In this document: piece by piece, positions 3,001 through 38,451 of the stretch | Layout of the letters: each line of letters opens with the position of its first letter | Position numbering within the stretch: the first letter of the stretch is position 1 | Assembly (NCBI GenBank): GCA_964631145.1 | Contig: CAZVXT010000001.1 | Coordinates: 1 to 50,968, forward strand | DNA: 50,968 nucleotides | Direction: 5' to 3' | Source: an uncultured Candidatus Saccharibacteria bacterium | Lineage (GTDB): Bacteria; Patescibacteriota; Doudnabacteria; UBA920 | Position numbers and translations under genes: made by a program | The notes under the pieces: model-generated | Databases searched by the model: none | Seen by the model: only the letters and a program-made list of their open reading frames with translations | Told to the model about the DNA's origin: nothing

Positions 3001-6000
3001 TATATGAATTGCCTGAGCCTGATGAGCTATAGAAATTAGTACCAAAAAAGTTTGTAGCATAACCGTTAGTACCACCAAATGTACCTACATCATTGGCATA
3101 GAATAAGGTTGTACCTCCATTTTTTACTTCAAATCTATATACTGGCGTACTCGTCCCTATCCCCACATTACCACTCGCAACCACTAAGGCAGCTGGGTTA
3201 GTTATGGTTACGTTAGAACCTGCAGTAGGAGGTCCTGCAATGTATAAGGTTGATGCTGAGGTGTAAGTTGTTGCAGAGGAAGCTGCAAAGGTTGGAATAC
3301 CTAAACTATTAGCAACAGCGTTGGCTACAGTTCCAGTTGAAGTGGTGTCTGTATAGGTTGCAGCTGCGCCTTGGAGGGCAATACCGTTTACTCCCCAGGC
3401 AGAGGCAGAGCGGTTGCCTCCAAGCGTCAAAAGACCAGCAGGATTGCTTACTCCTATACCTACATTGCCGGATCCAGATAAAATTCTCATTTTCTCACCA
3501 GCTGAACCATAGCCTGTATAAAAAATCAAATCTACCTGATCGAGCCCGGAAGCATTTGTTTTACCTTCTATTCCAGCATATGCACTTGAATACGAAGGAT
3601 TGTAAAATTTAATTATTCCCTGACTAGTACTTACAGCATTACCGCCAAATAATCCAATAGATGATGAAACAGATAACTTTTCTCCGGGACTCGTCGTCCC
3701 AATCCCCACATTACCGCCTTGCTGAATACGCATATACTCAGCTGCTGTACCACTAAAACCACCGATCGCCCCAAAAGCTAAATCAGATATATTGTTTCCT
3801 CTAGTAATACTTGCTACATAATTTCCATCTCCAACATTTGAGTCAGCACCACGAGGTACTAAACGCAATGAGGCGTACGAATTCACTATGGCACTGTCGT
3901 TACTAATAACTAATCCGGAAGTGTCCGTATTTAAATCTATCGCTGAATTATTTACATTATTAGAAATTTCGGTTCTAGCATAAGGACTACTCGCACCAAT
4001 ACCAACATTGCCGCTAGTCTCCAAAATAAATTGTGGGGCTATTGAGGTGCTTGGTGTAAAAATATTACCAGCTGTTAGATTTAAAGAATGCGTAGTCTGA
4101 ATCCAGTTTTTGGATCCATCGTCACCAAAGAAAAATTTATTGTTTGGATCGTTAAATCTAAAAATATTCCAATTCTGTGTTCCAGAAGTAACTCCAGAAA
4201 AATTAGTTATTAACTGAGATGGATTCGCCCATTGCTGTGCAGATAAATTTCCAGTTGAGTCATAAAAACCAAGTGCAGCAGTTGCGTTACTTTTAATTGA
4301 CAAAGATTCTACTGGAGAAGAATTACCTATCCCCACATTGCCATTAAAGTACGCCACTCCACCTGTAGGTGTAGTAGAACTTCCAACCGAAAGATTACCA
4401 AGCGTATATATATTGTCAGTGTTGGTTGTCGGAGAAAGGGTTGTACCACTGCGTGACCAGTAACCAATGGTCCCACTAATTGGCGCTGTGGTAGTAAGAG
4501 CAGAAAACGCGTCAGTATACACAACGCTATTGGTAGCCAAGCCAGAAAATGTAGCAGAAGCAGAGAAGGTGGGATTAGTACCAAACACTAATGCCCCAGT
4601 ACCAGTCTCATCGGTTACTGCAGTCAACAAATTTACACTGGAAGGTGCAGTTAAGAATGTCACAACTCCGCTGGCCAATCCAGATACACCAGTGCTAATT
4701 GGAAGTCCCGTACCATTAGTAAGTGTTACCGCTGATGGTATTCCTAAATTAGGAGTAACAAGTACCGGGCTATTAGCCAAAACCAGATTACCAGTTCCCG
4801 TTTCATCAGAGATCACAGAAGCAATCCCTGATGAGGTTGTAACTGCCGAAAACGGTGATGCACCATTTCCCATAAGCAATCCTGTTAAGCTTGTCGCACC
4901 ACTACCGCCATTACCAACCCCTAATGTACCCGATACTTCTGCGGTGGACAGATCTACGGCCGTAGTCGTAGAACCAGATCCTGTAAAGAATGCGGAAGTT
5001 ACTAAATCCGAAACATAATTATCAGTTAAGGCTGTACCATTCCATACACCAGTGGTTATAGTACCGACTGTTATAATAGATGATTGTCCAGTATATGTAG
5101 CTGCTATGTCGATAGTTGGATTACCGGCAATACCACTTCCATTAGTTACGGCAATACGGTCGTTGGTACCGGTTAGTGTGCGTGCAGTGCTGACGTTATT
5201 TGCTGTACGCACCACTAAGCCATTGCTCCCTGGATCGCCCAATGAAGTCAAAGATTGCTGGTCAAGTTGATATCTCGTTGCGCCGATAGTAATGTACAAA
5301 TGAGAACCATCATACTCAACAGCACCATCTTCAGGTATTGCAAGATTAGCGCCTGCAGATATTTTTAGTGGAGCTGTTCCAGCCGCTACAGTCCCAGCTG
5401 CAATCGTTATTCGTGCTGAAGGGGTTATTGTACCAACACCCAAAGAATTACTTCCGGTATCCCAAAATAAATTATTATTGCTTTGTGCCAAGTTACCAGC
5501 ACCATCTACAAACAAGATAGAACCAGCAGTACCGCTAGTAACCGAACTACCAATCGCCCCTACTCCGCATGATGCACCTGCTACACCTACAACACCGCTA
5601 TTATCAACTTGCAAACACTTGGTACCATTTCCAGCTAAACCACTTAAGGTTAAATTATTTATAGTAGCCGTTCCAGTTATACTTGCTGTGTTTGTGTAAA
5701 ATCTTGTTGAAGACAAATCAGTTGCAGAAAACAAACTTACACCAGAAACATTTGTAGAAGGACTTGCCGGAATGTAAGTAATCACCGCAGGGGCTGTTGC
5801 TGTCTGATTATTATTTGATTGTCCAACTGACTTACTAATTAAATCTCCAAACCATCCAGCTTCAATCACCTGTTGAATGTTTCTCATTACCAATCTATCA
5901 ATCTCTCTTTCGTCGTACTTACCTAGATCAAATGTATTACGTTGAGCATATCCCTTAACCATGTTACTAGTCGTGAGACTACTATTATCAACCATGCTCA

Positions 6001-6355
6001 ACACACGACCACTGACTACTTGAGCTGGTGCAACAGCTTCACCTCTTGGCATGAAAACCAAAGGCTTAGAGTGTTCATTTATATCAACCGACTTAAATAA
6101 GTTTGCTACCCCAGGAAATTCTGGTACATGCAAATTATTTAACCCAAGTCCTGTTTTTACAACTGCAATTTTATCGTTAACAATATTTAAAACAGTTTGC
6201 TTTTGTTCAATGTTATAAAAATATGAAGTAGTAATTCCATAAAACGCCAAAGCTATAATCCAGGCAAACAAATATTTAGTCTTAAGATAACCGTGCTTCT
6301 TAATCTGCAATTGCTTTTCGTTAGCAATTAAATTGATCTCTAATTTAGGACGCAT
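1..6355 (-). CDS. Giant (>2118 aa, runs off the left edge) membrane-anchored, tail-fibre-like repeat protein with recurring GNVGIG motifs
   Basis: Not in the ORF track. Manual translation from ATG at 6355 (MRPKLEINLIANEKQLQIKKHGYLKTKYLFAWIIALAFYGITTSYFY...) stays in one frame down to position 2; frame checked at 5464, 4459, 2704 and 4. GGAGGTGG lies upstream. The sequence is Gly/Ser/Thr/Asn/Ala-rich with repeated GNVGIG(T) motifs and an N-terminal hydrophobic helix. Confidence 0.9.
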   Translation of the reverse strand, partial: MRPKLEINLIANEKQLQIKKHGYLKTKYLFAWIIALAFYGITTSYFYNIEQKQTVLNIVNDKIAVVKTGLGLNNLHVPEFPGVANLFKSVDINEHSKPLVFMPRGEAVAPAQVVSGRVLSMVDNSSLTTSNMVKGYAQRNTFDLGKYDEREIDRLVMRNIQQVIEAGWFGDLISKSVGQSNNNQTATAPAVITYIPASPSTNVSGVSLFSATDLSSTRFYTNTASITGTATINNLTLSGLAGNGTKCLQVDNSGVVGVAGASCGVGAIGSSVTSGTAGSILFVDGAGNLAQSNNNLFWDTGSNSLGVGTITPSARITIAAGTVAAGTAPLKISAGANLAIPEDGAVEYDGSHLYITIGATRYQLDQQSLTSLGDPGSNGLVVRTANNVSTARTLTGTNDRIAVTNGSGIAGNPTIDIAATYTGQSSIITVGTITTGVWNGTALTDNYVSDLVTSAFFTGSGSTTTAVDLSTAEVSGTLGVGNGGSGATSLTGLLMGNGASPFSAVTTSSGIASVISDETGTGNLVLANSPVLVTPNLGIPSAVTLTNGTGLPISTGVSGLASGVVTFLTAPSSVNLLTAVTDETGTGALVFGTNPTFSASATFSGLATNSVVYTDAFSALTTTAPISGTIGYWSRSGTTLSPTTNTDNIYTLGNLSVGSSTTPTGGVAYFNGNVGIGNSSPVESLSIKSNATAALGFYDSTGNLSAQQWANPSQLITNFSGVTSGTQNWNIFRFNDPNNKFFFGDDGSKNWIQTTHSLNLTAGNIFTPSTSIAPQFILETSGNVGIGASSPYARTEISNNVNNSAIDLNTDTSGLVISNDSAIVNSYASLRLVPRGADSNVGDGNYVASITRGNNISDLAFGAIGGFSGTAAEYMRIQQGGNVGIGTTSPGEKLSVSSSIGLFGGNAVSTSQGIIKFYNPSYSSAYAGIEGKTNASGLDQVDLIFYTGYGSAGEKMRILSGSGNVGIGVSNPAGLLTLGGNRSASAWGVNGIALQGAAATYTDTTSTGTVANAVANSLGIPTFAASSATTYTSASTLYIAGPPTAGSNVTITNPAALVVASGNVGIGTSTPVYRFEVKNGGTTLFYANDVGTFGGTNGYATNFFGTNFYSSSGSGNSYIAMGTGVNKNIKFNTNNTDVGIFDSAGNFGIGDTSPAALLTVGNGDLFQVNSSGAIAAATGITSSGTINFSGLSASSAVYTDASKNLTTTAPTSGSLGYWSRSGTALQPATSTDNIVIPANGAASTPSVALTGTWFTGGDATTTKPQLLIEPTGTTSNNWSTGGTAIGVNAVSGFAGDLLKLEVNGSSKFRIDQNGNQYDANTILFNNAVSGANAAWIGWTNRSKLYSDADGNIRLSNNAGTGFSRLQFGGTTSSFPSLQVSGANLNLSLADNSAYTNLALGQLYASDQIRANSSGTTKLYLDGINNREVLNSNAIITWKDNTDALAGSADVALARSAAGILKVSDASTGYGGLTANSLLLTSNRSSSAWGVNGIALQGAAAIYTDTSSSGTVANAVANSLGIPTFAASSATTYTSASTLYIAGPPTAGSNVTITNPAALVVASGNVGIGTSTPVSALDVLGSINTSGNITLTAGSGYLRFGSSGGRSAIFSSADGVIDLYNNAHTDFSRLNFGGTTSSFPAIKRSGTTLQARLADDSGYASFDAGSLLVGGANINTGGTLSNVAYLDQLNIFSQQNTFNSSIAIANTVSSELVFSGANSANIYQSTSGQSLYINSNTGSMYLGANGSGSQHITILSSGNVGIGNTSPNARLDILDTTLAGSGALTGSVLNIAQTWSTSGTPTAVKLNVTDNASNANSVLMDLQVGGVSKFSVLKSGYVTSQSVGAFSGLSLNATGALSWSTHSVVNSPVDGQITLMNAAQNNFTSLNFGGTSSSFPAIKRNGSALDLRLADDSGYAGLTSNYNIISGNRSASAWGVNGIALQGAAATYTDTSSTGTVANAVANSLGIPTFAASSATTYTSASTLYIAGPPTAGSNVTITNPAALVVASGNVGIGTSSPALKLQVLGSSGYPATSGTTQTGVMRLITTSPGTQVLDMGVNNGTGTAWLQATSSTDLSAKWAISLNPNGGNVGIGDTSPASLLTVGSGDLFQVNSSGAIAA
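311..577 (-). repeat. 267-nt intragenic repeat, copy 1 (89 aa: NRSASAWGVNGIALQGAAATYTDT...ALVVASGNVGIGTS)
   Basis: Direct sequence comparison. 311-499 is identical to 3149-3337. Confidence 0.95.
1646..1912 (-). repeat. 267-nt intragenic repeat, copy 2
   Basis: Near-identical to copies 1 and 3 with scattered, mostly synonymous differences. In frame (offset 1335 nt). Confidence 0.95.
3149..3415 (-). repeat. 267-nt intragenic repeat, copy 3
   Basis: Offset 2838 nt from copy 1 (in frame). The first ~189 nt on the + strand are identical to copy 1. Confidence 0.95.
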
Positions 6356-6599
6356 AGCCACCTCCCAATCCCTCAAACTTCTTCAAAAACTTTCTATGCT
6401 TTATTTCCTGTTGTTTAGAATATGCCAAAACAGCTTGACGTGTAGTCAACCAATCGCGAGAAATCTTTAACGCTGGAAGTCTTCCTTTACGAGCTAGTAA
6501 AGATAAGTATTCTGAACTATAAGGAGTAAGCTTCGAAGCGTCAGAGATAGAAATAAGTTGTCCTGAAGCGAGTAATATCTGCTTCTCTTTTTCTGACAT
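6345..6599 (-). CDS. Small excisionase/MerR-like helix-turn-helix protein
   Basis: ISISDASKLTPYSSEYLSLLARKGRLPALKISRDWLTT matches the HTH_17/Xis-like pattern. Overlaps the start of the giant ORF by 11 nt. Confidence 0.75.
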   Translation of the reverse strand: MSEKEKQILLASGQLISISDASKLTPYSSEYLSLLARKGRLPALKISRDWLTTRQAVLAYSKQQEIKHRKFLKKFEGLGGGYAS

Positions 6600-6754
6600 T
6601 TCTAAATTGTATTTTTATTTTTGTTTCGTTATCCAATATATGATTGTTTAAACTATCATAATCGTCTATCCGATACTCTTATAACCTAATTTTAGCAAAA
6701 ATTAGCACTAAAATCAACCAGGTTAATATATACACTTAAGTGCATTAGACAAAC

Positions 6755-6780
6755 TTAAAACGTCCTTTCGGGCGTTTTAA
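6755..6780 (-). terminator. Intrinsic terminator downstream of rplS
   Basis: Hairpin ttaaaacgtcc-tttc-gggcgttttaa. Confidence 0.7.
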
Positions 6781-6799
6781 AAAGTTTTATATAAATTTA

Positions 6800-7180
6800 C
6801 TACTTAGCCTTTGCTTTATTAGGTCCAATTTTAGACTTAGTAGAATTTTTGCGAATTCTAGGTGCGTTATCACGAAGCTTTCTGACATAATAAAGTTTGC
6901 TTTGTGTGACAACACTATCTTTAACTATTTCTAGTTTTGCAATGTTTGGAGAATGTAAAGGATAAATACGCTCTACCCCTACTCCATTACTAATTTTACG
7001 AACAGTAAATGTAGCGTTTACTCCATTACCACCCTTGCGAGCGATAACCAAACCTTCAAAGATCTGAATACGTTCTTTACCGGCTTCTTTAATACGGTTA
7101 TGAACTTTAACAGTAAATCCAGTCTTAAATTCTGGCAATTCTCTGACTTGTTCGGTTTTTAAATTTTTTACAATTGGCAT
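6800..7180 (-). CDS. rplS: 50S ribosomal protein L19
   Basis: GFTVKVHNRIKEAGKERIQIFEGLVIARKG...TFTVRKISNGVGVERIYPLHSP. Confidence 0.98.
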   Translation of the reverse strand: MPIVKNLKTEQVRELPEFKTGFTVKVHNRIKEAGKERIQIFEGLVIARKGGNGVNATFTVRKISNGVGVERIYPLHSPNIAKLEIVKDSVVTQSKLYYVRKLRDNAPRIRKNSTKSKIGPNKAKAK

Positions 7181-7182
7181 AA

Positions 7183-8151
7183 TTATAATAAATTAAGTTT
7201 ATGACTATTTAAGCTTACTAGCAATTCTTTAATATCATTAGGTAATTTACTTTCAACTTTTACCGACTGTCCATCAGGTAAAGGTATAAAGATCGAGTAA
7301 GCATGTAAAGCTTGTCTAGAAAAACCTAATTTTAAAGATTTTTTTCCTCCATATAAAGTGTCTCCTACTAATGGAAACCCTAAGGAAGAAAAATGAACGC
7401 GAATCTGATGCGTTCTACCTGTGTGTAATTTTACCTTAATTAGAGTATATTCGTCAAGTTTTGCAAAATCACCCTTTTTAGCATCTCCATAGGTTAATCT
7501 TTCTAGCACCTGATATTCCGTTAAAGACGCTTTTTGGAGCACCATATCTTGTGTATCTGTTGTATATTTACGAAAGTCCTTTTTGCTTTTACCTAAAGGA
7601 CTGTCTATTAATCCATGCTCATTTGGCAATCTACCACAGACCAAAGCAATATATTCTTTTTTAACTTTTTTCTCCTTCCAAGCCGTCTTCAAGTAATCAT
7701 ACATATCTGAAGTTAAAGCTATAGCTATAACACCACTTGTATCTTTATCTAGTCGATGTACAATACCACTTCTGCCCTCTTCCCCAACCAGATGGATATC
7801 CTTAAAATGATACAACAAACCTTGAGCCAAAGAATTGCCCTTAAACCCAGCACCAGGGTGCACTGGCAATCCAGCAGGCTTATCCAATATTAACAATCCA
7901 TGATTATTGTATAAAGTTTTCAAAGGAATATTGACGGGTCCTGGAATTTCTTCTTTGCTAGGTCTATAAGAAATAGAATCATCTTTTCGCACAACAAATT
8001 TTGGCTCAAGTTTATTTTCGTTATTTACTTTTACTAAACCAGCTTCTATATCTCGCTGAATTTTACTGCGTGACAGATCTGGCAATTGCTCTGCCAAAAA
8101 TTTATCCAGTCTTAATTTTAATTGTTCAACTTTAAAAGTTTTGATTGACAT
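7183..8151 (-). CDS. rluD: RluA/RluD family pseudouridine synthase with S4 domain
   Basis: N-terminal RLDKFLAE...SRSKIQ; catalytic HRLDKDTSG; GRTHQIRVH; GDTLYG. Confidence 0.92.
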   Translation of the reverse strand: MSIKTFKVEQLKLRLDKFLAEQLPDLSRSKIQRDIEAGLVKVNNENKLEPKFVVRKDDSISYRPSKEEIPGPVNIPLKTLYNNHGLLILDKPAGLPVHPGAGFKGNSLAQGLLYHFKDIHLVGEEGRSGIVHRLDKDTSGVIAIALTSDMYDYLKTAWKEKKVKKEYIALVCGRLPNEHGLIDSPLGKSKKDFRKYTTDTQDMVLQKASLTEYQVLERLTYGDAKKGDFAKLDEYTLIKVKLHTGRTHQIRVHFSSLGFPLVGDTLYGGKKSLKLGFSRQALHAYSIFIPLPDGQSVKVESKLPNDIKELLVSLNSHKLNLL

Positions 8152-9647: not shown

Positions 9648-12600
9648 TTATGGAGTAGTTTCTCCACCATCTGGGACACCAGATCCTACTGCAAATAAGT
9701 AAGGAGGTGTGTACACAGCAAGGTTTCGCTGATCGGACTGAATATTGGCTGTATTTTGGAATCTGTATAATGTACCAGCACCACCACCAGGATTACTTAT
9801 AGTTGCTGTCATGATAATACTACAAACCCCGCTTGGAGCAATATTACTTACAGAAAAAGTCTTAGTACCAGCATTAAATCCTGTTACACAATTACCACTA
9901 GAACTTACATATGACAGATTTGATAAATTAGTTGTAGTATCAACTACTCGAACATTGGTTAAAGTTTGGTTTCCAGTATTACAAATATTAACTTTAAATT
10001 TAACTGTATCGCCTGTTTTCAACAACCGATTACTTGGCAATTGATAAACATCAGACTGACCATTACAATCTACTGCGGTAGACCCAGAAGTGTTTGCATT
10101 TACTTGAATCAAATCTTTATCTGACACAGAGATATTAGAACTACATGTAACAGGAACAATCGGTGTTACCGAAGCATCTACTTTAACAGATTCAGAAACA
10201 CCTATATAAGCAGAGACCGCATAATAGTTTGAACCATTTGGATTGAGAGGAGCCAAATCAGTAACGCTATAAGTAGATCCATATAATACATTTGCCCCTA
10301 GTTGTTGCCACGCATCTGTAGTAGCAGCTCTTCTATAAACCTTAAATCCTTCTGGAGCTGGACCGGTTCCTGATATAGTCCAATTAATTTGTATCGTACC
10401 GCAAGCAACGCTTCCACCAGAATTTACATCATTAACAGATGGGGGTGGATTAGGTGGCTGTGGTTGATTAACAACAAAGTTAACAGCGCAAGTATGAGTC
10501 TGTCCACCTCCAGTACCTGTAAATGTAATTGTATAAGTTCCTAAGGTTGTACTTGTGGTAGTCGACACTACAGCTGTCGTCGCGGCACTAGGCACTGCTC
10601 CATTATTGGTATAACTAACTATTGGAAGAGTTCCTGTGTTTGGGCTAAAACTATGGCTAAATGTAACTGCAGAACTAAATCCACTTAAAGCAGTAGTAGA
10701 AAGATTGAAAGAACTTGTAGAACCTGCAGCAACAGTTTGAGTAGCAGGAGTACAACTTACACTAAAGTCTGGGTTAACATTTACAGTTACTGTGTCAGTG
10801 GCACTACCACCAGGACCAGAACAGCTTAAAGTATATGTTGTAGTAGTTGTAAGATTGCCCGATGACTGGCTTCCTGATGTACCGCTTGCCGATAAAGGAC
10901 TGACTGTGCAAGATGTAGCAGCAGTAGATGTCCAACTAATAGTAGCTGCTGTATTATAAGATACATTAATTGGACCATCCGAACTATTGGCTTTTATATC
11001 TGCTGTTGGAGCAACAGTATTAACTATGAACGTGACATTGCAAGAATGACTTTTTCCACCTCCAGTACCTGTAAATGTAATTGTATATGTCCCTGGTGTT
11101 GTGTATAAACCTGTCCAGACATTTACGTAAGTAGTAGCGCTTGGCACAGCCCCATTATTACCATATGTAACCGTTGGAAGAGTTCCTGTGTTTGGACTAA
11201 AGCTATGGCTAAATGTAACTGCAGAGCTATAACCGTTTTGTGCTGTGGTTGTTAAGTTAAATGTACCTGTCCCACCTAAATTTATAGTCTGCGAAGTTGG
11301 AGTACAATTGATTGTAAAGTCTGGGACATTAATCACATTTACCGTTACTGTATCAGTGGCACTACCACCAGGACCATTACAAGTTAGCGTATATGTTGTC
11401 GAAACTGTTAAAGATCCAGAAGACTGGCTTCCTGATGTACCACTTGCCGATAAAGGACTGACTGTGCAAGATGTAGCAGCAGTAGATGTCCAACTAATAG
11501 TAGCTGCTGTATTATAAGATACATTAATTGGACCATCCGAACTATTGGCTTTTATATCTGCTGTTGGAGCAACAGTATTAACTATGAACGTGACATTGCA
11601 AGAATGACTTTTTCCACCTCCAGTACCTGTAAATGTAATTGTATATGTCCCTGGTGTTGTGTATAAACCTGTCCAGACATTTACGTAAGTAGTAGCGCTT
11701 GGCACAGCCCCATTATTACCATATGTAACCGTTGGAAGAGTTCCTGTGTTTGGACTAAAGCTATGACTAAATGTGACTGCAGAACTATAACCGTTTTGGC
11801 TTGTAGTGCTAATATTAAACGAAGCACTACCACCAGCAGAAATTGTTTGAGTTGAAGGAGAACATGTAAAGGTAAAGTCTGGGGTACCTGTAACAGTTAC
11901 AGTTACACTTTGCGTTGCGCTGTTTGTAGATAAAGCACCGCTACAATATAAAGTGTATGTATAAGTGCCAGGGGTATTTAGAGCTCCTGTAGATGCAGTA
12001 TAAGTTGTTCCGGGAGTACTAGATTTTGCACCGCTCCATGAACCTCCTGCTGTACATGCAGAACCACTATTTGTCGCAGTTGGTGTCCAAGATAATGTTG
12101 CAGACTGACCTACGGTTAAACTCGACGCATTAGATCCATTAACCTGAAGCACAACTGTTGGTTGCTGGTATATAGCCAAGTCTGTAGAAGTTTGCAAAGT
12201 GATTGCAGCGTTAACAACTAAATTAACCGAGCATGTATGGGTTTGTCCTCCGCCAGTACCTGTAAATGTAATTGTATATGTTCCTGCAGCCAGACCCGCT
12301 CCTGTTGTAACTGTTGCTGTAGTGGTCGCATTAGGAGCGGCACCATTGTTGGTATAGCTTATACTCGCTGATACTCCTGGGTTAGGGTTCATATTATGAG
12401 AAAAACTTACCCCACTAGAAAACCCACTTAACGCTGATGTAGATAAATTATATGAAGCAGAACTGCCTGGGTTAATTGTCTGTGTTGAAGGACTGCATGA
12501 TAAAGCAAAGTCTGGGGTTGAACCAGCAGAAAAAGTTAAAATAATAGTGTTTGTCTCAGTTATTCTATCTACATTATAATCAGTAGCATCGCAATTAGCT

Positions 12601-12998
12601 GTTAATTCAACAACATCATCTAATGATTGCAGTGTGTAGGTTGTGTTTAAATGACCAGCTGATCCATAGTTATATATATTAAAACCTCTATATTCGCCAT
12701 TAGGCATAATGGCATATGCATCTTGCAATGAATAATTTAAGGTATCAATGTTTGCATCTAGTTCAAAGGTATCACCCGCTATAAAATTAGAAAAGTCAAC
12801 ACTATTAATTTGATATATAGTTCCTTCATAATAGCTCTGTTGAGCCCCGGTTCTCAAATTTTTAACATAACCATTAAAGGCTTCGTTACAACCACCTTCT
12901 GCCAAAGCTTTGTTTACATTAAAGACAGAGAATGCTTGCAGTACTAAAATAAAAATAAATAATATTTTTAATATTTTAACTATCATGGACAAATACAC
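9648..12998 (-). CDS. Large secreted/surface Ig-like repeat protein (4 Cys-bounded modules, PKD-like spacers, FN3-like and DUF11-like C-terminal domains); likely start ATG at 12986
   Basis: Signal peptide ending ALA-E. Four PDF..SC.P.TQT...GTYTITFTGTGGG...C.V...VN modules. GDTVKFKVNICNTGNQTLTNVRVVD resembles DUF11. Confidence 0.85.
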   Translation of the reverse strand: MYLSMIVKILKILFIFILVLQAFSVFNVNKALAEGGCNEAFNGYVKNLRTGAQQSYYEGTIYQINSVDFSNFIAGDTFELDANIDTLNYSLQDAYAIMPNGEYRGFNIYNYGSAGHLNTTYTLQSLDDVVELTANCDATDYNVDRITETNTIILTFSAGSTPDFALSCSPSTQTINPGSSASYNLSTSALSGFSSGVSFSHNMNPNPGVSASISYTNNGAAPNATTTATVTTGAGLAAGTYTITFTGTGGGQTHTCSVNLVVNAAITLQTSTDLAIYQQPTVVLQVNGSNASSLTVGQSATLSWTPTATNSGSACTAGGSWSGAKSSTPGTTYTASTGALNTPGTYTYTLYCSGALSTNSATQSVTVTVTGTPDFTFTCSPSTQTISAGGSASFNISTTSQNGYSSAVTFSHSFSPNTGTLPTVTYGNNGAVPSATTYVNVWTGLYTTPGTYTITFTGTGGGKSHSCNVTFIVNTVAPTADIKANSSDGPINVSYNTAATISWTSTAATSCTVSPLSASGTSGSQSSGSLTVSTTYTLTCNGPGGSATDTVTVNVINVPDFTINCTPTSQTINLGGTGTFNLTTTAQNGYSSAVTFSHSFSPNTGTLPTVTYGNNGAVPSATTYVNVWTGLYTTPGTYTITFTGTGGGKSHSCNVTFIVNTVAPTADIKANSSDGPINVSYNTAATISWTSTAATSCTVSPLSASGTSGSQSSGNLTTTTTYTLSCSGPGGSATDTVTVNVNPDFSVSCTPATQTVAAGSTSSFNLSTTALSGFSSAVTFSHSFSPNTGTLPIVSYTNNGAVPSAATTAVVSTTTSTTLGTYTITFTGTGGGQTHTCAVNFVVNQPQPPNPPPSVNDVNSGGSVACGTIQINWTISGTGPAPEGFKVYRRAATTDAWQQLGANVLYGSTYSVTDLAPLNPNGSNYYAVSAYIGVSESVKVDASVTPIVPVTCSSNISVSDKDLIQVNANTSGSTAVDCNGQSDVYQLPSNRLLKTGDTVKFKVNICNTGNQTLTNVRVVDTTTNLSNLSYVSSSGNCVTGFNAGTKTFSVSNIAPSGVCSIIMTATISNPGGGAGTLYRFQNTANIQSDQRNLAVYTPPYLFAVGSGVPDGGETTP
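10864..11798 (-). repeat. 558-nt-period intragenic tandem duplication (186 aa)
   Basis: 10885-11207 is identical to 11443-11765. Confidence 0.95.
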
Positions 12999-13119: not shown

Positions 13120-13710
13120 TTATTTAGATAAAGCGACTTGCTCATCTAATATTGTAGATTTCAAAAAAACCTTAGACTCTACAGAATCCATACAACCTTT
13201 ATTACTAAATAATTTATTGTAAGATTTTTGCCTTTCATAAGCAAACCGTTCGTCTGCTATACCCTGTTTATGAATTAATTCATGACCAATCAAAGATACT
13301 AATGAATAAACGATGTCTGGGTATTTACAGCTAAATTCTGATTTTTCTAAATAATTATCATATTCTTCTTCCCAAGCCAAAAATTTATTATAGTCATTTT
13401 TTTCTCGGACTATATAAATAGGAAACAAACCTGTTTTAGTAAAGGCTTTTGCGGTTTTTAGTTTTTGCAAATCTTTATCTGTGCATTTCTCATCTAAACA
13501 AAAACGTTCTATATTATTAACGATAACAATATTACCAAGCAATATTTGATTAAAATCTGCCTTAATATGAGGCATATCATTTAAGACCTTTAAAGCATCT
13601 TTTACAATTTCAGGGTTTTTGTCACCTGTAATAGTTGCTGGCTCTCCTCCATTTACACCTGCAATAAAAAACATTATAAGAAACATTCCGAAAAATAAAA
13701 CTCTTAACAT
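13120..13710 (-). CDS. Secreted zincin-like metalloprotease candidate
   Basis: Hydrophobic N-terminus; HELIH (HExxH) followed by DERFAYE; own promoter, AGGAGG SD and terminator (13090-13114). Confidence 0.65.
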   Translation of the reverse strand: MLRVLFFGMFLIMFFIAGVNGGEPATITGDKNPEIVKDALKVLNDMPHIKADFNQILLGNIVIVNNIERFCLDEKCTDKDLQKLKTAKAFTKTGLFPIYIVREKNDYNKFLAWEEEYDNYLEKSEFSCKYPDIVYSLVSLIGHELIHKQGIADERFAYERQKSYNKLFSNKGCMDSVESKVFLKSTILDEQVALSK

Positions 13711-13820: not shown

Positions 13821-13863
13821 TAAATAATAAAAGCACTCAATATAGATAAGTGCTTTGTTTAAA
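13821..13863. repeat. 43-bp imperfect direct repeat / terminator, left copy
   Basis: taaataataaaagcactcaatatagataagtgctttgtttaaa; the last 18 nt are identical to the copy at 16600-16641. Confidence 0.8.
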
Positions 13864-13864
13864 T

Positions 13865-14995
13865 TCAAAATTCTAAACCAAATATATGATTAAGAAACCA
13901 AAGATCAAAATCACCTGGAACCTTATATGATCTAATAATCTTAAACATTCTATTCAAGTAATCTCGATTTAATATAGTAGCCACCTCATCTATCTCTACT
14001 TTATGGTCATTAGATATATTTTTTTGCAAATATTTAATACATAATTTAACATAATGCAGATCTTTGAGCATAATAGCTGATTCATTTGAATTCCATTTAG
14101 AACTTAGTGCTAATAATCCCCTAATTTCGTTTACATTGCTAAATATATCAAACACTGATTCTAGTTGTAAATTTTTGTGCAAGGCATCAGTTTTGTTACA
14201 CCGAAGAAGTGGATGAATAATAAATCTAAACCTTAAATTTTTTTTCAACATTTGTGTAATCAAGACAACCCTAATCGCTTTATTAAGATTATTAGGTGAC
14301 AAAACCATCACAATTTCATCTACAGACTGAGGTGCGATAAAATTAATATATGTGGACCAAATAAATTCTGTATCATAACTTATTTTTCTTTGACTTCGAG
14401 AAATAATATATGGAAATTCACATAGCGAATAATAATCCTTTTCTGCTTGTAATTTATATTTTGACGGTAATATAATATTTAAATCTGTATTTGCATCAAA
14501 ATTTAAGATTTTTACACTTTGTTTTTTAAAGTCTAATCTCTGCATGCAAAACTTGCACTTTGGATCACTAGATGTTCCTACTACTAAATTTTTATTACTA
14601 TTATTTATAAAAAAATATTTTTCTAAAAAACTTATAGGTATTTCTACCTTACCACATTTACACCAAGCCATATCTAATTCTTTGCTTTCAATAAAATTAT
14701 TACTATTTAACAACTGTAAACATTCCTTGAAATAATATTTAAATTTTAAAGAGCCATCGTGATCAGCTGTATTAAAATTTATATACAAAGTGTTTAATTG
14801 TTTTTTGTATAGTTCAAATAACAATTGTTGCTTTTTACTATCAAAAGTTGTTTTCATACCCACAGTATTGCAAAACATAAAAAATGGCGTATGACTTACT
14901 CGTGAAATAACATCTGCAATAAAAGGTGTATAGAACCTTAAAAGTGGAGATGACGAAGAAGGTGTAATAGGCAAAGTCGTAATTATTCTATTCAT
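13865..14995 (-). CDS. Class I aminoacyl-tRNA synthetase (MetRS-like) catalytic-fold paralog with degenerate HIGH/KMSKS
   Basis: Colinear with MetRS landmarks by eye: IITTLP, FIADVISR, Zn-knuckle WCKC...CKFC, IISR, HPLLRC, EIRGLL. HIGH and KMSKS are absent. Confidence 0.6.
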   Translation of the reverse strand: MNRIITTLPITPSSSSPLLRFYTPFIADVISRVSHTPFFMFCNTVGMKTTFDSKKQQLLFELYKKQLNTLYINFNTADHDGSLKFKYYFKECLQLLNSNNFIESKELDMAWCKCGKVEIPISFLEKYFFINNSNKNLVVGTSSDPKCKFCMQRLDFKKQSVKILNFDANTDLNIILPSKYKLQAEKDYYSLCEFPYIISRSQRKISYDTEFIWSTYINFIAPQSVDEIVMVLSPNNLNKAIRVVLITQMLKKNLRFRFIIHPLLRCNKTDALHKNLQLESVFDIFSNVNEIRGLLALSSKWNSNESAIMLKDLHYVKLCIKYLQKNISNDHKVEIDEVATILNRDYLNRMFKIIRSYKVPGDFDLWFLNHIFGLEF

Positions 14996-15054
14996 AATTT
15001 CCTCCTAACTATGTGATTTGATACAATAGTACTAAATCAACAAATTTTGTCAAT

Positions 15055-15765
15055 ATGAAAACCTTACTAAAAAACTTCTATCACAATAAATGCTATGTCG
15101 AATATCTGCTAAACGAATCCAGCAATGCAATTATTTTACTAGATGGATTACCAACCAAAATTCAACGCGAAAAATTAATTTTTGAATTATCTAAATATGG
15201 TTATTCAGTATTTTATCCTCACTATATAGGAACTTGGAAGAGTAAAGGAGAATTTCTAGATCACCCCCCTACCAAAGAAATAGATGATTTGATTACGTTA
15301 CTTCTTAACAATTTTAAAGAAAACAAAAAAATTTTGCAGATCAATATTATTTCTTCTAGTTTTGGATCAGCTATAGCATCTTGTTTATCAAACATGGAAT
15401 TTATAAATAAATCTGTATTACTCTCGCCGGTTTTAGATTTTACAAAAGTTCATGGCATTTCTACTTTAGAACAATATTTAAGGGATAATTATAAAAATGA
15501 ATACCGCTTCAAATCTTACAATTGGGAAAAGCTAGTAAACAACCAAATCATTAACCCAGCAAACGTCCTTAAAAATTCTAATTTTAAAACAAAATTTAAA
15601 ATTTTCGCAGGAAAAGAAGATGTGCAAATAGATATTAATTATTTAAAAAAATTTTCAAAAAATAATAACATTGCTTTTGAAAATATAAAAAATATAGGAC
15701 ACTTATCTTATTCTAAAATAGATAAACCAATGCTTGAGAAGATATTAAAATGGCTAAAATCTTAG
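15055..15765 (+). CDS. Alpha/beta hydrolase
   Basis: LLDGLP oxyanion segment, GYSVFYPHYIGTWKSKG, nucleophile elbow SSSFG, GKED acid, IGH His. Confidence 0.8.
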   Translation: MKTLLKNFYHNKCYVEYLLNESSNAIILLDGLPTKIQREKLIFELSKYGYSVFYPHYIGTWKSKGEFLDHPPTKEIDDLITLLLNNFKENKKILQINIISSSFGSAIASCLSNMEFINKSVLLSPVLDFTKVHGISTLEQYLRDNYKNEYRFKSYNWEKLVNNQIINPANVLKNSNFKTKFKIFAGKEDVQIDINYLKKFSKNNNIAFENIKNIGHLSYSKIDKPMLEKILKWLKS

Positions 15766-16479
15766 CCTTTTATTTTTGTACAATTGTAAGTAATTAAAAT
15801 ACAGTTCCGTTTTTATTTCTAACCAATGATTAGATTTTATATCGCTATATTGAATAAATAGCAATTTCTTAATTTTAGATGAAAAGATTTGAGATTTTGC
15901 AATATATTTTTCAATAATTTCTAGGTGAGAATACATGTTTATATCAGAATATGAAATATTATTTTCTATTAACATCATATCTATACATATGCGCATAATA
16001 TATTTTCGAAAAAATATTTTCCATTTATCATCACTACTATATAAATAACTTTTATTAAGCCTCCAAAAATATTCTTCGATTTGAAAAAGCAAGGACTGCT
16101 CTTCCTTATGCTTATCCAAAAAGTTAAGCTTATTTAAAAAATAGTTATTTCCGATAATACTTTGAGCAGTCGCCAAATACTTAAAGAAAAAAGTGCCATG
16201 GTTTCCATGTTGAAAATTTTTTACCCCTTTAACTTCTATAATACTTTTATACTGCAACGAAATATCGACTATATTATATGATTGCAAACAAGCTCTTAGT
16301 TTTATTAAGTCGTCGTCATGAGGTAGATCTAATAATAAATAAAAGTCCAAATCTGAATCTTGGGTAGTATTTTTATTCGTTGCTCCAGATCCATAAAATA
16401 GAAAGTCTACAACCCTATCTTTACCATACAGACTAACCACTTCTTTTATAAACCTATCTAAAAAAAATTCTTTTGGCAT
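15754..16479 (-). CDS. Pol-beta superfamily nucleotidyltransferase with helical C-terminal domain
   Basis: FLFYGS...DSDLDFYLLLD signature. Confidence 0.8.
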   Translation of the reverse strand: MPKEFFLDRFIKEVVSLYGKDRVVDFLFYGSGATNKNTTQDSDLDFYLLLDLPHDDDLIKLRACLQSYNIVDISLQYKSIIEVKGVKNFQHGNHGTFFFKYLATAQSIIGNNYFLNKLNFLDKHKEEQSLLFQIEEYFWRLNKSYLYSSDDKWKIFFRKYIMRICIDMMLIENNISYSDINMYSHLEIIEKYIAKSQIFSSKIKKLLFIQYSDIKSNHWLEIKTELYFNYLQLYKNKRLRF

Positions 16480-16599
16480 TTAATAAAATTTTTAATTTAA
16501 AATAAGCAATTTTTAACCTATTTATATCATTTTATATGCCTAAATGCAAAGTCTATCGTATGATATTTAGCAATATCAATACAATATGATGCAATAGAT

Positions 16600-16641
16600 T
16601 AAATAACAAAAACACTTATATAAATAAGTGCTTTGTTTAAA
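16600..16641. repeat. 43-bp imperfect direct repeat / terminator, right copy
   Basis: taaataacaaaaacacttatataaataagtgctttgtttaaa. Confidence 0.8.
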
Positions 16642-16643
16642 AT

Positions 16644-17162
16644 TTAAACTATTAACTGCAGATCTTTTATTGGTTTTATCTCATGGACATAACCTGATTG
16701 CAAACTTTCATTAGTATCCCCCGAAACCATTGGCGGCGAAACATAATATATCCCCTGAAAAGGATAATGAGCATACTTCTTCATATCCGCATTGGCAAAA
16801 GCTTGATCCGCTGTTTTTTTATTCATATAGCCTTGGATTATCAAAACAATATTTTTCATATCAATCTGTTGTTCTGTAAATTTATTAAATTTTCTATCTA
16901 TAGCTTCTAGAGTTGGTCTACGGGAATAATCCTGACTAACACCTTCGTATGCAATAAAAGAATTTTCAATAGCATAGGTTAACTGTAAATCTAAATGAGG
17001 AAATTGTTTTAACCTAGAAACCAAATGCATATCCACGGCAGAATACTCTGTAAATTCGGGAACAACTTCATAGTCAGTAAAATATTTATGATTTAAATAC
17101 TTTACAAAAACTTTTGTCCAAATCAACTCTGTATTCTTTTTGATATTTATATTAATGCCCAT
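16644..17162 (-). CDS. Hypothetical protein, possible PD-(D/E)xK nuclease-like fold
   Basis: E...VD(x11)LQLT pattern and AIDRKFNK helix; weak, by eye only. Overlaps the LOG stop by 11 nt. Confidence 0.45.
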   Translation of the reverse strand: MGININIKKNTELIWTKVFVKYLNHKYFTDYEVVPEFTEYSAVDMHLVSRLKQFPHLDLQLTYAIENSFIAYEGVSQDYSRRPTLEAIDRKFNKFTEQQIDMKNIVLIIQGYMNKKTADQAFANADMKKYAHYPFQGIYYVSPPMVSGDTNESLQSGYVHEIKPIKDLQLIV

Positions 17163-18042
17163 TTACTTTGCGGTTAGCAGAAATTTTTTGAATGCGCTTG
17201 ATTTCTTCTGGATCGTCCACATCACAAGCATCCTTCATTCTAACACCAGATCGTTTTTGACTTAATGCATCTTGAGCACGAGAAGGCAAGCCATGCTTAT
17301 ACTCATCAATAACTCTTTTTATATATCGCAACGCCTCTTCTGCGCTATCAACCAAATGATAAAGTTTAGTATCTTCTTCCGATATCGCACCATCTTTTTG
17401 ATACATTGTTTTCTCAATCCATCTTAGCAATGGCTTCCAAAACTCTTTATTTACCAAAACAATTGTAATAGGTGATACTTTTTTTGTCTGCACTAAAGTG
17501 AGCATTTCAAACAATTCATCCATCGTTCCAAAACCTCCAGGGAAAAACACATAAACCTGTGAAGCAGAAGCCAGCATTACTTTTCTTGTAAAAAAGTAAT
17601 GGAAAGAAGATGCTTCATTTACATAAGGATTAATACGCTGTTCATGTTCAAGTTGTATATTAAGCCCCACAGATTCTCCGCCAGCTTTTGCAGCTCCTTT
17701 ATTAGCAGCCTCCATTACCCCAGGTCCACCACCCGTAACAACTGCGAAGCCTTCTTGGGTTAACCAATAAGCAAGCTTTGTAGCGTCTTTATAAACTTTA
17801 TGATCAAAGCCGCATCTTGCAGAGCCAAAAATAGTGACAGCTTTTTTGTAATGACGAATAAATTTATACCCTAAGATTAGCTCGTTCATAATTCTAATTA
17901 ATCTTCGAGTAGAAAAGCCGCCTTTTTGAATACTCATTAATTCGTCAATTTGACCAGTGCTCCACGCTACAGAATCCGAATCTATATTTTTAGGCAAAAT
18001 TGCTTTTACCTGCCCATGTTTCTTTTTATTTATCTTCTTCAT
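17152..18042 (-). CDS. LOG family (TIGR00730-type) Rossmann-fold nucleotide phosphoribohydrolase
   Basis: VTIFGSAR, TGGGPGVMEAANKGA, FFTRKVML, PGGFGTMDELFE. Confidence 0.93.
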   Translation of the reverse strand: MKKINKKKHGQVKAILPKNIDSDSVAWSTGQIDELMSIQKGGFSTRRLIRIMNELILGYKFIRHYKKAVTIFGSARCGFDHKVYKDATKLAYWLTQEGFAVVTGGGPGVMEAANKGAAKAGGESVGLNIQLEHEQRINPYVNEASSFHYFFTRKVMLASASQVYVFFPGGFGTMDELFEMLTLVQTKKVSPITIVLVNKEFWKPLLRWIEKTMYQKDGAISEEDTKLYHLVDSAEEALRYIKRVIDEYKHGLPSRAQDALSQKRSGVRMKDACDVDDPEEIKRIQKISANRKVNGH

Positions 18043-18670: not shown

Positions 18671-19750
18671 TTAATAAGCTGTGCCAGTAACTGTAAGTGT
18701 TTGCCCCAATCTAGACTGGGGTGTAGAAAGTTGATTGCTTGGAACATTTCCTGTATTAGTTATTGTTAAAGTTACAGAACCTCCGCAATTAATAGTTGTA
18801 TTTGAAAAAGTATATGATAGATTACTAAAACCGCTATTAGCTGATAGTGCTGTAATTGGACCAGCCAAACCGCCAGTACAAGTTGCGGAAACAGTATAAG
18901 CCTGACTATTACCTTTAAGAACATCTGCCGAACTTGGTGATATAGATAGTGTATAAGTACCAGCTGGTGCAGCATTAACAGTTAAAGTCACACTGCAACC
19001 TGAACTTTGTCCACCTCCACTTCCGGTAAATGTAATTGTATATGTACCAACTGTAGTGGAAGTAGAAGTACTTATATTTGCTGTTGTGGTGCTTGAGGGA
19101 ACTGCTCCATTATTTGTATAAGAAATCCCTGGCAAAGTTCCACTTGATGGACTAAAGCCGTGGCTAAAAGTTACTCCAGAAGAAAAACCATTTTGGGGAG
19201 TTGTAGATAAATTAAATGAAGTAGAGCCACCCGCTGTTATAGTCTGAGTTGAGGGAGAGCAAGAAACTGTAAAAGTAGGCACTGGACCTGAAGGGACGTT
19301 TAATAAAATAGATATAAAAATATTTGCCGAAGCTCCGTTACAACCTTGTCCAGCAGACATAGTAATATTTTGAGAAGAATCATTAATAGGGTTAGTCCAA
19401 TATGGTCCCCAAGGAGTGCCGTTACCAGAATAATTATAAATAGAGTTATTAGTATCTGTCGTAATAAACCCTCCTGGCCAAATTAAACTACCGTAATCTA
19501 ATATACTTCCCATATGATAAGTCATTGAAGTTATAGATGTACCAGCATCAACATACACAGATCCACTAAATTGGTTACCGCTATCCGCCGCAGCACTAAA
19601 CCATTCTTGCTGTCCGTCTTTTATATAAGCAAAATCTAAATTTGCACTAGCTGATGATTCTGGACATTCTGCAAAAACCGGCTTATAACCTATAAAGCTT
19701 CCAAGAGCAGCGCTTAATAAAATACTTATAATTAATAAAATATGTTTCAT
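18671..19750 (-). CDS. Secreted protein carrying one copy of the same Cys-bounded Ig-like module as 9648-12998
   Basis: Signal peptide ending VFA-E; PTFTVSCSPSTQTITAGGSTSFNLSTT...GTYTITFTGSGGGQSSGCSVTLTVN. Confidence 0.85.
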   Translation of the reverse strand: MKHILLIISILLSAALGSFIGYKPVFAECPESSASANLDFAYIKDGQQEWFSAAADSGNQFSGSVYVDAGTSITSMTYHMGSILDYGSLIWPGGFITTDTNNSIYNYSGNGTPWGPYWTNPINDSSQNITMSAGQGCNGASANIFISILLNVPSGPVPTFTVSCSPSTQTITAGGSTSFNLSTTPQNGFSSGVTFSHGFSPSSGTLPGISYTNNGAVPSSTTTANISTSTSTTVGTYTITFTGSGGGQSSGCSVTLTVNAAPAGTYTLSISPSSADVLKGNSQAYTVSATCTGGLAGPITALSANSGFSNLSYTFSNTTINCGGSVTLTITNTGNVPSNQLSTPQSRLGQTLTVTGTAY

Positions 19751-38013: not shown

Positions 38014-38451
38014 TTAAAGTTTATTTAAATTATTTTTAAAAATTAAAATTAATAATGCGAAAATAATATAAAAATCTGCAATGTTAAACACAGCGCTTCC
38101 AATGTGGATAAAATCTATCACCTGACCAAAATATACTCTGTCGAAAAAATTTGAAATACCTCCAGCCAAAATCATAACTCCCAATGCAGGATTTATTTTT
38201 TTTGAGAAATAAGTAAAATAGAAAACAAAAGTGATGACAAAAATATATAAAACTATGACTATGTATTGCGGTGCGGTTATATCGAAAATTAATTTTGAAT
38301 TTAAAAAAATTATACTTGGTGCAAATTTATTAAATAAAAATTTAGTTAGTTGATCAAATATAACAAGCGAGCAAAAAAACCAAAAACCGAAAGTGTAATT
38401 AGAACATCTTTCGGTTAAGTAGTTATAAAATTTATCAGTTGAGAAATTCAT
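38014..38451 (-). CDS. lspA: Lipoprotein signal peptidase II
   Basis: DQLTK; LAGGISNFFDRVYFGQVIDFI; FNIAD. Confidence 0.9.
   Translation of the reverse strand: MNFSTDKFYNYLTERCSNYTFGFWFFCSLVIFDQLTKFLFNKFAPSIIFLNSKLIFDITAPQYIVIVLYIFVITFVFYFTYFSKKINPALGVMILAGGISNFFDRVYFGQVIDFIHIGSAVFNIADFYIIFALLILIFKNNLNKL

Follow-up and report, generated by a model that had tools for sequence, protein, structure and literature searches.

An undescribed three-component system organised around a family of pseudo-methionyl-tRNA synthetases

Catalytically dead paralogues of aminoacyl-tRNA synthetases (aaRSs) that have a defined partner are, to our knowledge, rare, with HisZ as the textbook case, and each earlier example has shown the synthetase scaffold put to a new use. 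HisZ is a pseudo-histidyl-tRNA synthetase (pseudo-HisRS) that acts with HisG as a subunit of ATP phosphoribosyltransferase. Cyclodipeptide synthases have the architecture of class Ic aaRSs, carry no ATP motifs and use aminoacyl-tRNA. The MenT/AbiEii toxins are nucleotidyltransferases (NTases) that act at the acceptor end of tRNA and thereby block charging. In the hydrazine synthetases, which also carry a cupin, domains that resemble methionyl-tRNA synthetase (MetRS) bring about ATP-dependent amino-acid activation (PMC8664883, PMC12376268). The present work concerns three adjacent genes at positions 13865-16479 of a 50,968-nucleotide stretch of DNA from an uncultured Candidatus Saccharibacteria bacterium (contig CAZVXT010000001.1 of assembly GCA_964631145.1); this whole stretch is referred to below as the window. 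The three open reading frames (ORFs) specify a pseudo-MetRS (ORF1), an alpha/beta hydrolase (ORF2) and a Pol-beta NTase (ORF3), which the initial annotation of the sequence had singled out as a candidate new system. The trio is an undescribed three-component system outside the known kinds, built around a new family of pseudo-MetRS proteins.

The closest parallels each cover a part of the trio. Like HisZ-HisG, it couples a dead aaRS paralogue obligately to a nucleotide-using transferase, with ligand binding or regulation as the probable common ground; however, HisZ is a class II protein, its partner enzyme is unrelated and no esterase is involved, whilst a complex of the present proteins is indicated by gene fusions only. 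Cyclodipeptide synthases resemble ORF1 in being re-purposed aaRS folds that have shed the ATP signatures, but they are of the TyrRS/TrpRS type, are catalytic by themselves, and have neither a zinc knuckle nor NTase and esterase partners. The hydrazine synthetases are cupin-fused and ATP-activating and work without an NTase or esterase, whereas ORF1 has no cupin, HIGH or KMSKS. A literature search for MetRS-like or other aaRS-like proteins associated with NTases or with defence returned the hydrazine synthetases only and no description of the trio, and no model in PADLOC, Pfam, NCBIfam or PHROGs covers the trio as a system, so the earlier impression that this combination had not been described is upheld.

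Association of the three genes across lineages

Hidden Markov models (HMMs) of the three families were scanned over every fetched locus, a lineage being counted if its flanks were sufficient and a trio being scored when all three families lay at most about 2 kb apart or were fused. Both partners accompany the ORF1 homologue in 11 of 11 independent lineages (the window and ten others), in eight different arrangements (Table 1). A further locus, L002, has the hydrolase and the ORF1 homologue and is too short for the NTase. Fusions join ORF1 to the NTase in three proteins (P0076, P0089 and P0098, the last two known as sequences only) and the NTase to the hydrolase in L022, and the hydrolase gene of L014 is, on a reading of its motifs, a probable hydrolase-NTase fusion.

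Table 1. Gene order of the trio in 11 lineages (O, ORF1 homologue; N, NTase; H, hydrolase; > and <, direction of transcription)
Arrangement	Lineages	Remark
N> <H O>	window, L008, L011, L012	
<H <N O>	L001	
N> H> O>	L013	Candidatus Saccharibacteria metagenome-assembled genome
O> N> H>	L023	UGA read as Gly
[O-N fusion]> H>	L016	
O> <methyltransferase H> N>	L019	
[N-H fusion]> O>	L022	
O> <[H fused to GS...DxD region]	L014	NTase part read by eye only

Shuffling of gene order combined with three kinds of fusion is unusually strong genomic evidence for a functional unit, and there is little doubt that the three genes form one. Obligate co-occurrence and fusion together argue for a single complex or pathway. 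Since the NTase is found fused to either partner in other lineages, it is best placed as the hub of what is probably a physical complex of the three proteins. The initial annotation had treated the three genes as one system, to be abandoned if their homologues never co-occurred elsewhere; the co-occurrence in every lineage, the eight orders and the fusions show the reverse. Its suggestion of a layered detoxification, in which the three activities act independently, fits poorly with the same observations.

All-against-all BLAST of the flanking ORFs gave no fourth recurrent gene, and the methyltransferases near the trio in L008 and L019, considered as a shared component, are not specifically related to each other.

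Two of the loci need a word on how they were read. In L014 the gene at 2445-4274 (minus strand) encodes the hydrolase followed by an extended C-terminal region, which has a GS...DxD motif and ends in a helical, HEAT-like tail; the tail has no family match. In L023 (Logan SRR16020816, 2248-4941; proteins P0012 and P0013) the trio genes contain 19, 13 and 10 in-frame TGA codons, and the database translation has Trp in place of conserved Gly (SFWW for SFGG). Genetic code 25 (UGA = Gly) restores the motifs, so the locus is of the Gracilibacteria/Absconditabacteria type and was mis-translated in its source.

Exceptions to the association lie on the side of the partners. In L006 and L007 an NTase homologue occurs without ORF1: this 42%-identical protein belongs to another cassette (8001-12110 in L006) that also encodes a 464-aa second NTase-domain protein, a metallo-beta-lactamase (MBL)-fold protein with weak similarity to class II phosphodiesterases and anti-Pycsar proteins, a small ORF and a NUDIX hydrolase. 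The cassette may be a related nucleotide-centred system that lacks a pseudo-MetRS. In L026 (JRYD01000181.1, a 527-kb contig) a hydrolase-family gene at 323-1111 (minus strand) matches the HMM with E 1.4e-40 and is 26% identical to ORF2; no pseudo-MetRS or NTase lies to its right, the left side being cut by the edge of the locus, and it may be a solo paralogue.

Folds and active sites of the three proteins

ORF1 is the member of the trio that escapes ordinary annotation. Single-sequence searches gave no match in Pfam, NCBIfam, PADLOC, PHROGs or the PDB sequences, and the curated MetRS models (Pfam tRNA-synt_1g and those of NCBIfam) did not match it at E <= 1. A word-indexed homologue search recovered two relatives only, whereas an exhaustive profile search recovered 217 family representatives at E <= 1e-3, 135 of them at <= 1e-10. 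These representatives are clusters at 50% identity; nearly all are 360-390 aa long, and in the cluster look-up none bears a name in any source. The family thus constitutes a set of unannotated class I pseudo-synthetases.

An alignment of 113 family members was used for an AlphaFold2 (AF2) model of ORF1 and for the column statistics given below. The model has a mean predicted local distance difference test score (pLDDT) of 94.3 and a predicted TM-score (pTM) of 0.93, as against a pLDDT of 38 when only three sequences were supplied. In a Foldseek comparison with the PDB the top 41 matches to the model are all MetRSs, with E-values of 5.6e-13 and weaker, TM(query) of 0.55-0.67 and identities of 10-13%, and in the BFVD library of viral structures the first match is the MetRS of a giant virus. 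The family profile also finds MetRS and LeuRS as its best, though weak, matches among the PDB sequences (E 0.008-0.016). A profile alignment (hhalign) with E. coli MetRS, whose sequence is identical to that of PDB 1f4l, has an E-value of 8.6e-5 and places ORF1 6-113 on MetRS 12-131. ORF1 is accordingly modelled as a MetRS-fold core, consisting of a Rossmann domain, a connective-peptide (CP) domain with a four-Cys zinc knuckle, and a region with the stem-contact fold. Its likeness to MetRS (7wpi, 1a8h, 1qqt) extends from the overall fold to the strand motif TLPI, which stands opposite ALPY in the hhalign alignment, the zinc knuckle of the CP domain, an ISR motif, an HP/HG strand and the Arg of the stem-contact fold.

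What sets ORF1 apart from MetRS, besides the low identity and the NTase and esterase partners, is the loss of both ATP-binding signatures. HIGH is aligned with P17-L18-L19-R20, and the corresponding columns of the family hold P/S/K, F/L/I, G/L/R and T/L/I and never His; an HxGH string is found in none of the 113 members. The loop at 267-277, where KMSKS is expected, is unconserved and variable in length, and KMSKS-like strings occur in two of the 113, at unrelated positions. A forced global alignment, which is of low confidence, puts KMSKS opposite ...DALHK..., pairs ISR with ISR and IIHPLL with FVHGYV, and ends near MetRS residue 427, short of the part that recognises the anticodon. Since both signatures are gone throughout the family, ORF1 should be unable to activate an amino acid.

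ORF1 is also shorter than MetRS (about 376 as against at least 500 aa), with some 115 aa beyond the last Rossmann strand. The point at which the global alignment ends agrees with the three short helices that are predicted to follow the stem-contact-like region, and the anticodon-binding helix bundle appears, on the model, to have been lost.

Other features have been kept under evident constraint. The zinc-knuckle residues C112, C114, C147 and C150 are invariant (113/113), and strong conservation is also seen at L8, P9, N43, D80, G115, E118, P177, S199, R200, D208, D/E210, W213, P262, R292, W301 and R355. In the alignment with MetRS, positions that line the pocket are among those retained: L8-P9 correspond to L13-P14 and R200 to R233, and a Trp is conserved. 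ORF1 is thus a protein without canonical ATP binding and with a conserved, remodelled pocket, and the initial call of a pseudo-MetRS is confirmed by the fold together with the family-wide absence of HIGH and KMSKS.

For ORF3 the match to Pfam NTP_transf_2 is marginal (21.2 bits against a cut-off of 21), and the conserved residues are clear. In a family alignment of 12 sequences G30, S31, D43 and D45 do not vary, and the third carboxylate, D72, is invariant among the seven closer members. The family profile finds minimal NTases of the MNT kind (9xbd, 2e-6; 7ae2), ANT(3''), KNTase and Lnu in the PDB. With KNTase as reference (sequence checked against PDB 6un8), hhalign places ORF3 5-149 on KNTase 14-158 with a probability of 83%, E 8.8e-6 and about 19% identity over 129 columns. 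This alignment extends into the helical domain, matching HGTFF to HGQFF and setting E136 opposite the catalytic base of KNTase, E145; Gln stands there in the fusions P0076 and P0089. From its sequence, ORF3 is therefore classed as a KNTase/MntA-like Pol-beta NTase with a full putative catalytic set, in agreement with the original assignment to the Pol-beta NTases.

Two groups of described enzymes come closest to ORF3. It shares with KNTase (ANT(4')) and other ANT and Lnu enzymes (1kny, 6un8, 6p01, 6sxj, 3jyy) the G-S and DxD/E motifs, the third carboxylate, the HG-x-FF linker and, on the alignment, probably also a two-domain layout of about 250 aa with a glutamate opposite E145; it differs in that the putative base of the family is Gln in some members and that the NTase never stands alone where ORF1 is present. 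With the MntA antitoxins of the type VII HEPN/MNT systems (NF047752; 7ae2) the likeness is in the minimal NTase core, which is closest for some members, whereas ORF3 has a helical C-terminal domain of its own and is partnered by a pseudo-MetRS and an esterase. Below threshold, the NCBIfam MntA model NF047752 matches 2 of the 12 family members at 7e-9, and ANT(9) (1e-3) and ANT(3'') match a few of them weakly; the cut-off of a curated ANT or MntA model is reached by none. A search for a HEPN partner gave no significant match, the best being a chance-level one in ORF2 (E 0.14). The possibility that ORF3 is itself a fusion to a HEPN RNase was rejected on reading its C-terminal domain, which has no Rx4-6H.

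ORF2 matches Pfam Hydrolase_4 below the cut-off (8e-5), and the profile of its family finds Hydrolase_4/S33 esterases in the PDB, including FphH and cinnamoyl esterases, with E-values of 4.6e-6 and weaker. Neither Ser102 (in x-S-F-G) nor Asp189 varies in the nine-sequence family alignment; all nine members also have the catalytic His (at about 216), offset by one column in L013. ORF2 is predicted to be an alpha/beta hydrolase with an intact Ser-Asp-His triad in canonical order; the triad and the esterase matches bear out the annotated class.

Possible substrates and roles of the module

An aminoacyl ester on ribose is proposed as the substrate because it is the sole chemical object that unites the three folds. 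Tentatively, then, the dead synthetase would dock such an ester, most likely that at a tRNA 3' end, on behalf of the esterase and the NTase. ORF1 would be the substrate-docking and specificity subunit, much as the pseudo-HisRS HisZ is for HisG, and would present the ester, most likely as the 3' end of an aminoacylated tRNA. ORF2 would strip the acyl group. ORF3 would then either nucleotidylylate the freed 3'/2'-OH, which would block recharging in the manner of MenT, or nucleotidylylate a partner protein in the manner of MntA, which would keep the module restrained. The outcome would be a switchable control of translation, which small-genome bacteria of the candidate phyla radiation (CPR) type would carry as an accessory module of the stress, toxin or defence kind.

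The retention of the CP/zinc-knuckle and stem-contact regions in ORF1 counts in favour of tRNA. Precedents are offered by HisZ, the cyclodipeptide synthases, MenT and BPHL, the last being an alpha/beta hydrolase that is specific for amino-acid esters of nucleosides. The parallel with MenT/AbiEii is a mechanistic analogy in the proposed chemistry only, as those toxins belong to another NTase family (DUF1814) and no sequence relation to ORF3 was detected. A more specific form of the proposal, which is doubtful, is that of a new tRNA-directed conflict or stress module in which the dead MetRS guides the esterase and the NTase to the 3' end of (initiator) tRNA; the tRNA would be deacylated and capped, or a toxic deacylase would be restrained by NTase-mediated nucleotidylylation. 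In this form ORF1 would be the first class I pseudo-synthetase to direct a translation-shutoff system to its target. If tRNA is the target, the module would provide a new translation control and a new candidate type of toxin or defence in the poorly understood CPR bacteria.

A number of observations weigh against tRNA. The link between the module and tRNA is one that we infer. The bundle that appears, from the model, to be missing from ORF1 is the main element of MetRS for tRNA affinity. The ORF1 family is basic (median pI 8.8, compared with a background median of 8.35 in the window), but this is weak evidence for tRNA in genomes that are rich in AT and Lys. The two-domain relatives of the NTase, ANT(4'), ANT(9), ANT(3'') and Lnu, act on small molecules. 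The genes around the trio are mostly of the housekeeping kind rather than those of defence islands; no relevant tRNA or RNA-repair gene was seen near the trios, and occasional neighbours have a nucleotide-metabolism or resistance-like character (IMPase/CysQ in L001; a weak NDK-like gene in L022; ABC-F, an S66/MccF-like peptidase and a class II aaRS-like gene in L008). PADLOC-DB v2 gave no significant match, the best E-values of 0.018-0.038 being to candidate models and for ORF3 only; the check for known defence systems that had been proposed for the locus thus excludes those with PADLOC models.

Some of these observations can be turned to a different account, in which the obligate trio acts on a small molecule, such as an aminoacyl-nucleoside, a mimic of an aminoacyl-adenylate or a methionine-like metabolite, in detoxification, resistance or salvage. 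The pocket of ORF1 would bind the compound, the esterase would cleave its acyl or aminoacyl ester, and the NTase would O-nucleotidylylate a hydroxyl. Although this account taken by itself is unlikely, a small-molecule target is nearly as likely as a tRNA target. The resemblance of the NTase to KNTase goes beyond the minimal domain, with E136 opposite E145 and weak matches to ANT(9) and ANT(3''), but that glutamate is Gln in two of the fusion proteins. ORF1 has kept its pocket positions and appears to have no anticodon domain; on the other hand, the residues with which MetRS holds adenosine and ATP are gone (HIGH, KMSKS and, by the low-confidence global alignment, the Asp of GKDI). Neighbouring genes are suggestive, with the trio of L008 lying beside the S66/MccF-like peptidase, a truncated class II aaRS-like gene, a methyltransferase and ABC-F, genes for nucleotide metabolism in L001 and L022, and ABC ATPase genes of differing types near the trio in three lineages, yet each suggestive neighbour is found in one lineage and none is recurrent. 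Moreover, resistance enzymes usually act alone, and an obligate trio with fusions would be unusual for detoxification. Were a small molecule the target, the trio would represent a new three-enzyme route of resistance or salvage, of relevance to antibiotics directed at aaRSs.

In a further account ORF1 is a regulatory sensor in the style of HisZ. In that case it would bind methionine or a related ligand and control the NTase allosterically, with no tRNA involved, and the NTase would nucleotidylylate a protein, possibly the esterase, in a scheme resembling type VII toxin-antitoxin systems. The conservation of pocket residues in ORF1 despite lost catalysis would suit such a role, as would the affinities of the NTase, for which the best named relatives of some members are MntA antitoxins (7e-9) and the minimal NTases 9xbd (2e-6) and 7ae2 are also found. 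The patchy and variable position of the trio and its low GC content point the same way, and a YafQ-like toxin-antitoxin pair lies beside it in L015. The scheme is nonetheless improbable: a HEPN-type toxin with Rx4-6H is absent, a fusion of toxin to antitoxin would be atypical, there is no autoregulatory DNA-binding component, and no PADLOC or toxin-antitoxin model matches.

A mini biosynthetic cassette, also raised in the initial annotation, is more improbable still. Here the NTase would supply in trans the nucleotidyl transfer that ORF1 has lost, acting on an amino-acid-like substrate held by ORF1, and the hydrolase would serve as an acyltransferase or thioesterase, giving an aminoacyl or nucleotide-linked product. 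MetRS-like domains do act in secondary metabolism, in the hydrazine synthetases (PMC8664883), but those domains carry out ATP-dependent amino-acid activation, of which ORF1 should be incapable, and are fused to cupins, which it lacks. The fusions suggest channelling among the three proteins, and in L008 the trio adjoins a PqqD/radical-SAM cluster resembling those for ribosomally synthesised and post-translationally modified peptides (RiPPs). Against this, Pol-beta NTases normally transfer to hydroxyls rather than carboxylates, there is no recurrent gene for a carrier protein, a tailoring enzyme or a dedicated exporter, and biosynthetic capacity is low in the hosts, which are small-genome bacteria.

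Finally, the idea that separate insertions into an AT-rich spot placed three unrelated genes side by side might draw on the extension of the AT-rich region past the trio and on the occurrence without ORF1 of the NTase family, in L006/L007, and possibly of the hydrolase family, in L026, but chance adjacency is effectively refuted by the presence of both partners in 11 of 11 ORF1 lineages, in eight orders and with domain fusions of three kinds. The distinct catalytic or conserved residues of the proteins (D43/D45 of the NTase, S102 of the esterase, and C112, R200 and D208 of ORF1) make the trio testable by mutation.

The locus and its surroundings

The three ORFs have the positions and strands that had been assigned to them (Table 2). 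ORF1 and ORF2 are divergent and ORF2 and ORF3 convergent, the latter pair with the annotated 12-nt overlap (15754-15765), which lies inside a palindromic hairpin. ORF1 is preceded by a perfect AGGAGG 5 nt 5' of its ATG.

Table 2. Coordinates of the genes and sequence elements of the block in the window
Feature	Position	Strand	Length	Remark
ORF1, MetRS-fold pseudoenzyme (predicted)	13865-14995	-	376 aa	
ORF2, alpha/beta hydrolase, esterase-like (predicted)	15055-15765	+	236 aa	
ORF3, Pol-beta-superfamily NTase, KNTase-like two-domain layout (predicted)	15754-16479	-	241 aa	
Spacer between divergent ORF1 and ORF2	14996-15054		59 nt	ORF1 Shine-Dalgarno sequence (- strand); promoter-like hexamers on both strands
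Palindromic GC-rich hairpin at ORF2/ORF3 junction, bidirectional terminator-like	15752-15767			folding free energy (dG) -8.5 kcal/mol on both strands
Region upstream of ORF3, presumed promoter site	16480-16643	-	164 nt	includes repeat copy B
Terminator-like hairpin 3' of ORF1	13830-13878	-		includes repeat copy A (13840-13878)
Terminator-like hairpin 3' of gene 16644-17162	16606-16656	-		includes repeat copy B (16618-16656)

The block is AT-rich, as had been remarked, with a GC content of 26.4%, whereas the window has 34.2% and its genes average 33.2% (standard deviation 4.6); its genes rank third to fifth lowest in GC among the 42 of the window. The compositional edge is soft, since the adjoining genes are also AT-rich (28.8% GC for 13120-13710 and 31.2% for 16644-17162). 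Two genes elsewhere in the window have a lower GC content than the trio, 26092-26946 (minus strand, 24.6%) and 38014-38451 (minus strand, 24.4%), and may be further acquired genes.

Overlapping promoters for ORF1 and ORF2 had been proposed from the spacer between them. Promoter-like hexamers are indeed found there, among them TTGACA-16-TACTAT on the minus strand at 15053-15026, but promoter-like sites in general are not commoner than chance in the scan (25 found, 29 +/- 4.8 in shuffles); overlapping promoters are therefore putative, though plausible.

The direct repeats said to bound the block are real, with a different nature from that of classic insertion repeats. The two 39-nt copies are 82% identical and share an exact 16-nt core that occurs only twice in the window. 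Both form the 5' arm, and the approach to it, of minus-strand terminator-like hairpins followed by U-rich tracts. Copy A (dG -11.7 kcal/mol, z -3.3) follows ORF1, and copy B (-13.3 kcal/mol, z -4.4) follows the preceding gene, its hairpin marking the upstream edge of the cassette. As both copies are terminator hairpins, their interpretation as attachment sites or target-site duplications is unsupported, though an origin of the repeats as an insertion scar is possible.

The window is otherwise ordinary chromosome, with genes for FtsH, FtsK, RecA, a ComM-like protein, SMC, S16 and a sigma factor, and the only Rfam RNAs in it are two tRNAs far from the block. The ORF1 protein is also encoded on a contig of 654 kb, in keeping with a small genome of the CPR type. 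No integrase or phage gene was present in the trio neighbourhoods examined, PHROGs gave no match, a scan of viral contigs no relative, and a metagenome scan with the NTase alignment no locus; a GTDB scan with a narrow alignment gave one.

Upstream of the trio, at 16644-18042 (minus strand), lies an N-terminally extended gene of the LOG/TIGR00730 family (SLOG), which overlaps a gene for a 172-aa protein by 11 nt. This pair is kept in relatives (L024, L025 and L026) at 64-67% and 47-54% identity, and in L025 and L026 the trio is absent directly downstream of it. The two genes were considered as parts of the system and rejected, since relatives that have no trio there conserve the pair. The position of the trio is variable, because relatives that keep the pair lack the trio there, and with the low GC content and the duplicated terminator this marks the trio as a variable cassette in the window genome, which probably acquired it.

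In other lineages the neighbours are diverse. The inositol-monophosphatase (IMPase)/CysQ-family gene of L001 (444-1175, minus strand) lies immediately next to the hydrolase gene, in one operon with the NTase, and is found in L001 only. The weak NDK-like gene of L022 is near the trio. In L008 (JGI 3300056883; 1945-7756 and 10883-12556) the trio has by it a RiPP-like cluster of PqqD and radical-SAM/SPASM proteins with a 51-aa ORF, as well as an operon for a truncated class II aaRS-like protein (Asp/Asn/Lys-type), an S-adenosylmethionine (SAM)-dependent methyltransferase and an S66 peptidase similar to MccF and LD-carboxypeptidases, and the ABC-F ATPase gene lies downstream. The ABC ATPase genes near the trio in L013 and L022 are of the exporter type. 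The YafQ-like toxin gene pair of L015 is upstream of the ORF1 homologue.

Elsewhere in the window, the gene at 9648-12998 (minus strand) encodes a secreted or surface protein of 1116 aa made up of repeated modules, each about 100-190 aa long and two of them nearly identical over more than 150 residues, and a 359-aa paralogue (18671-19750, minus strand) contains this module too; the larger protein is probably a variable cell-surface protein.

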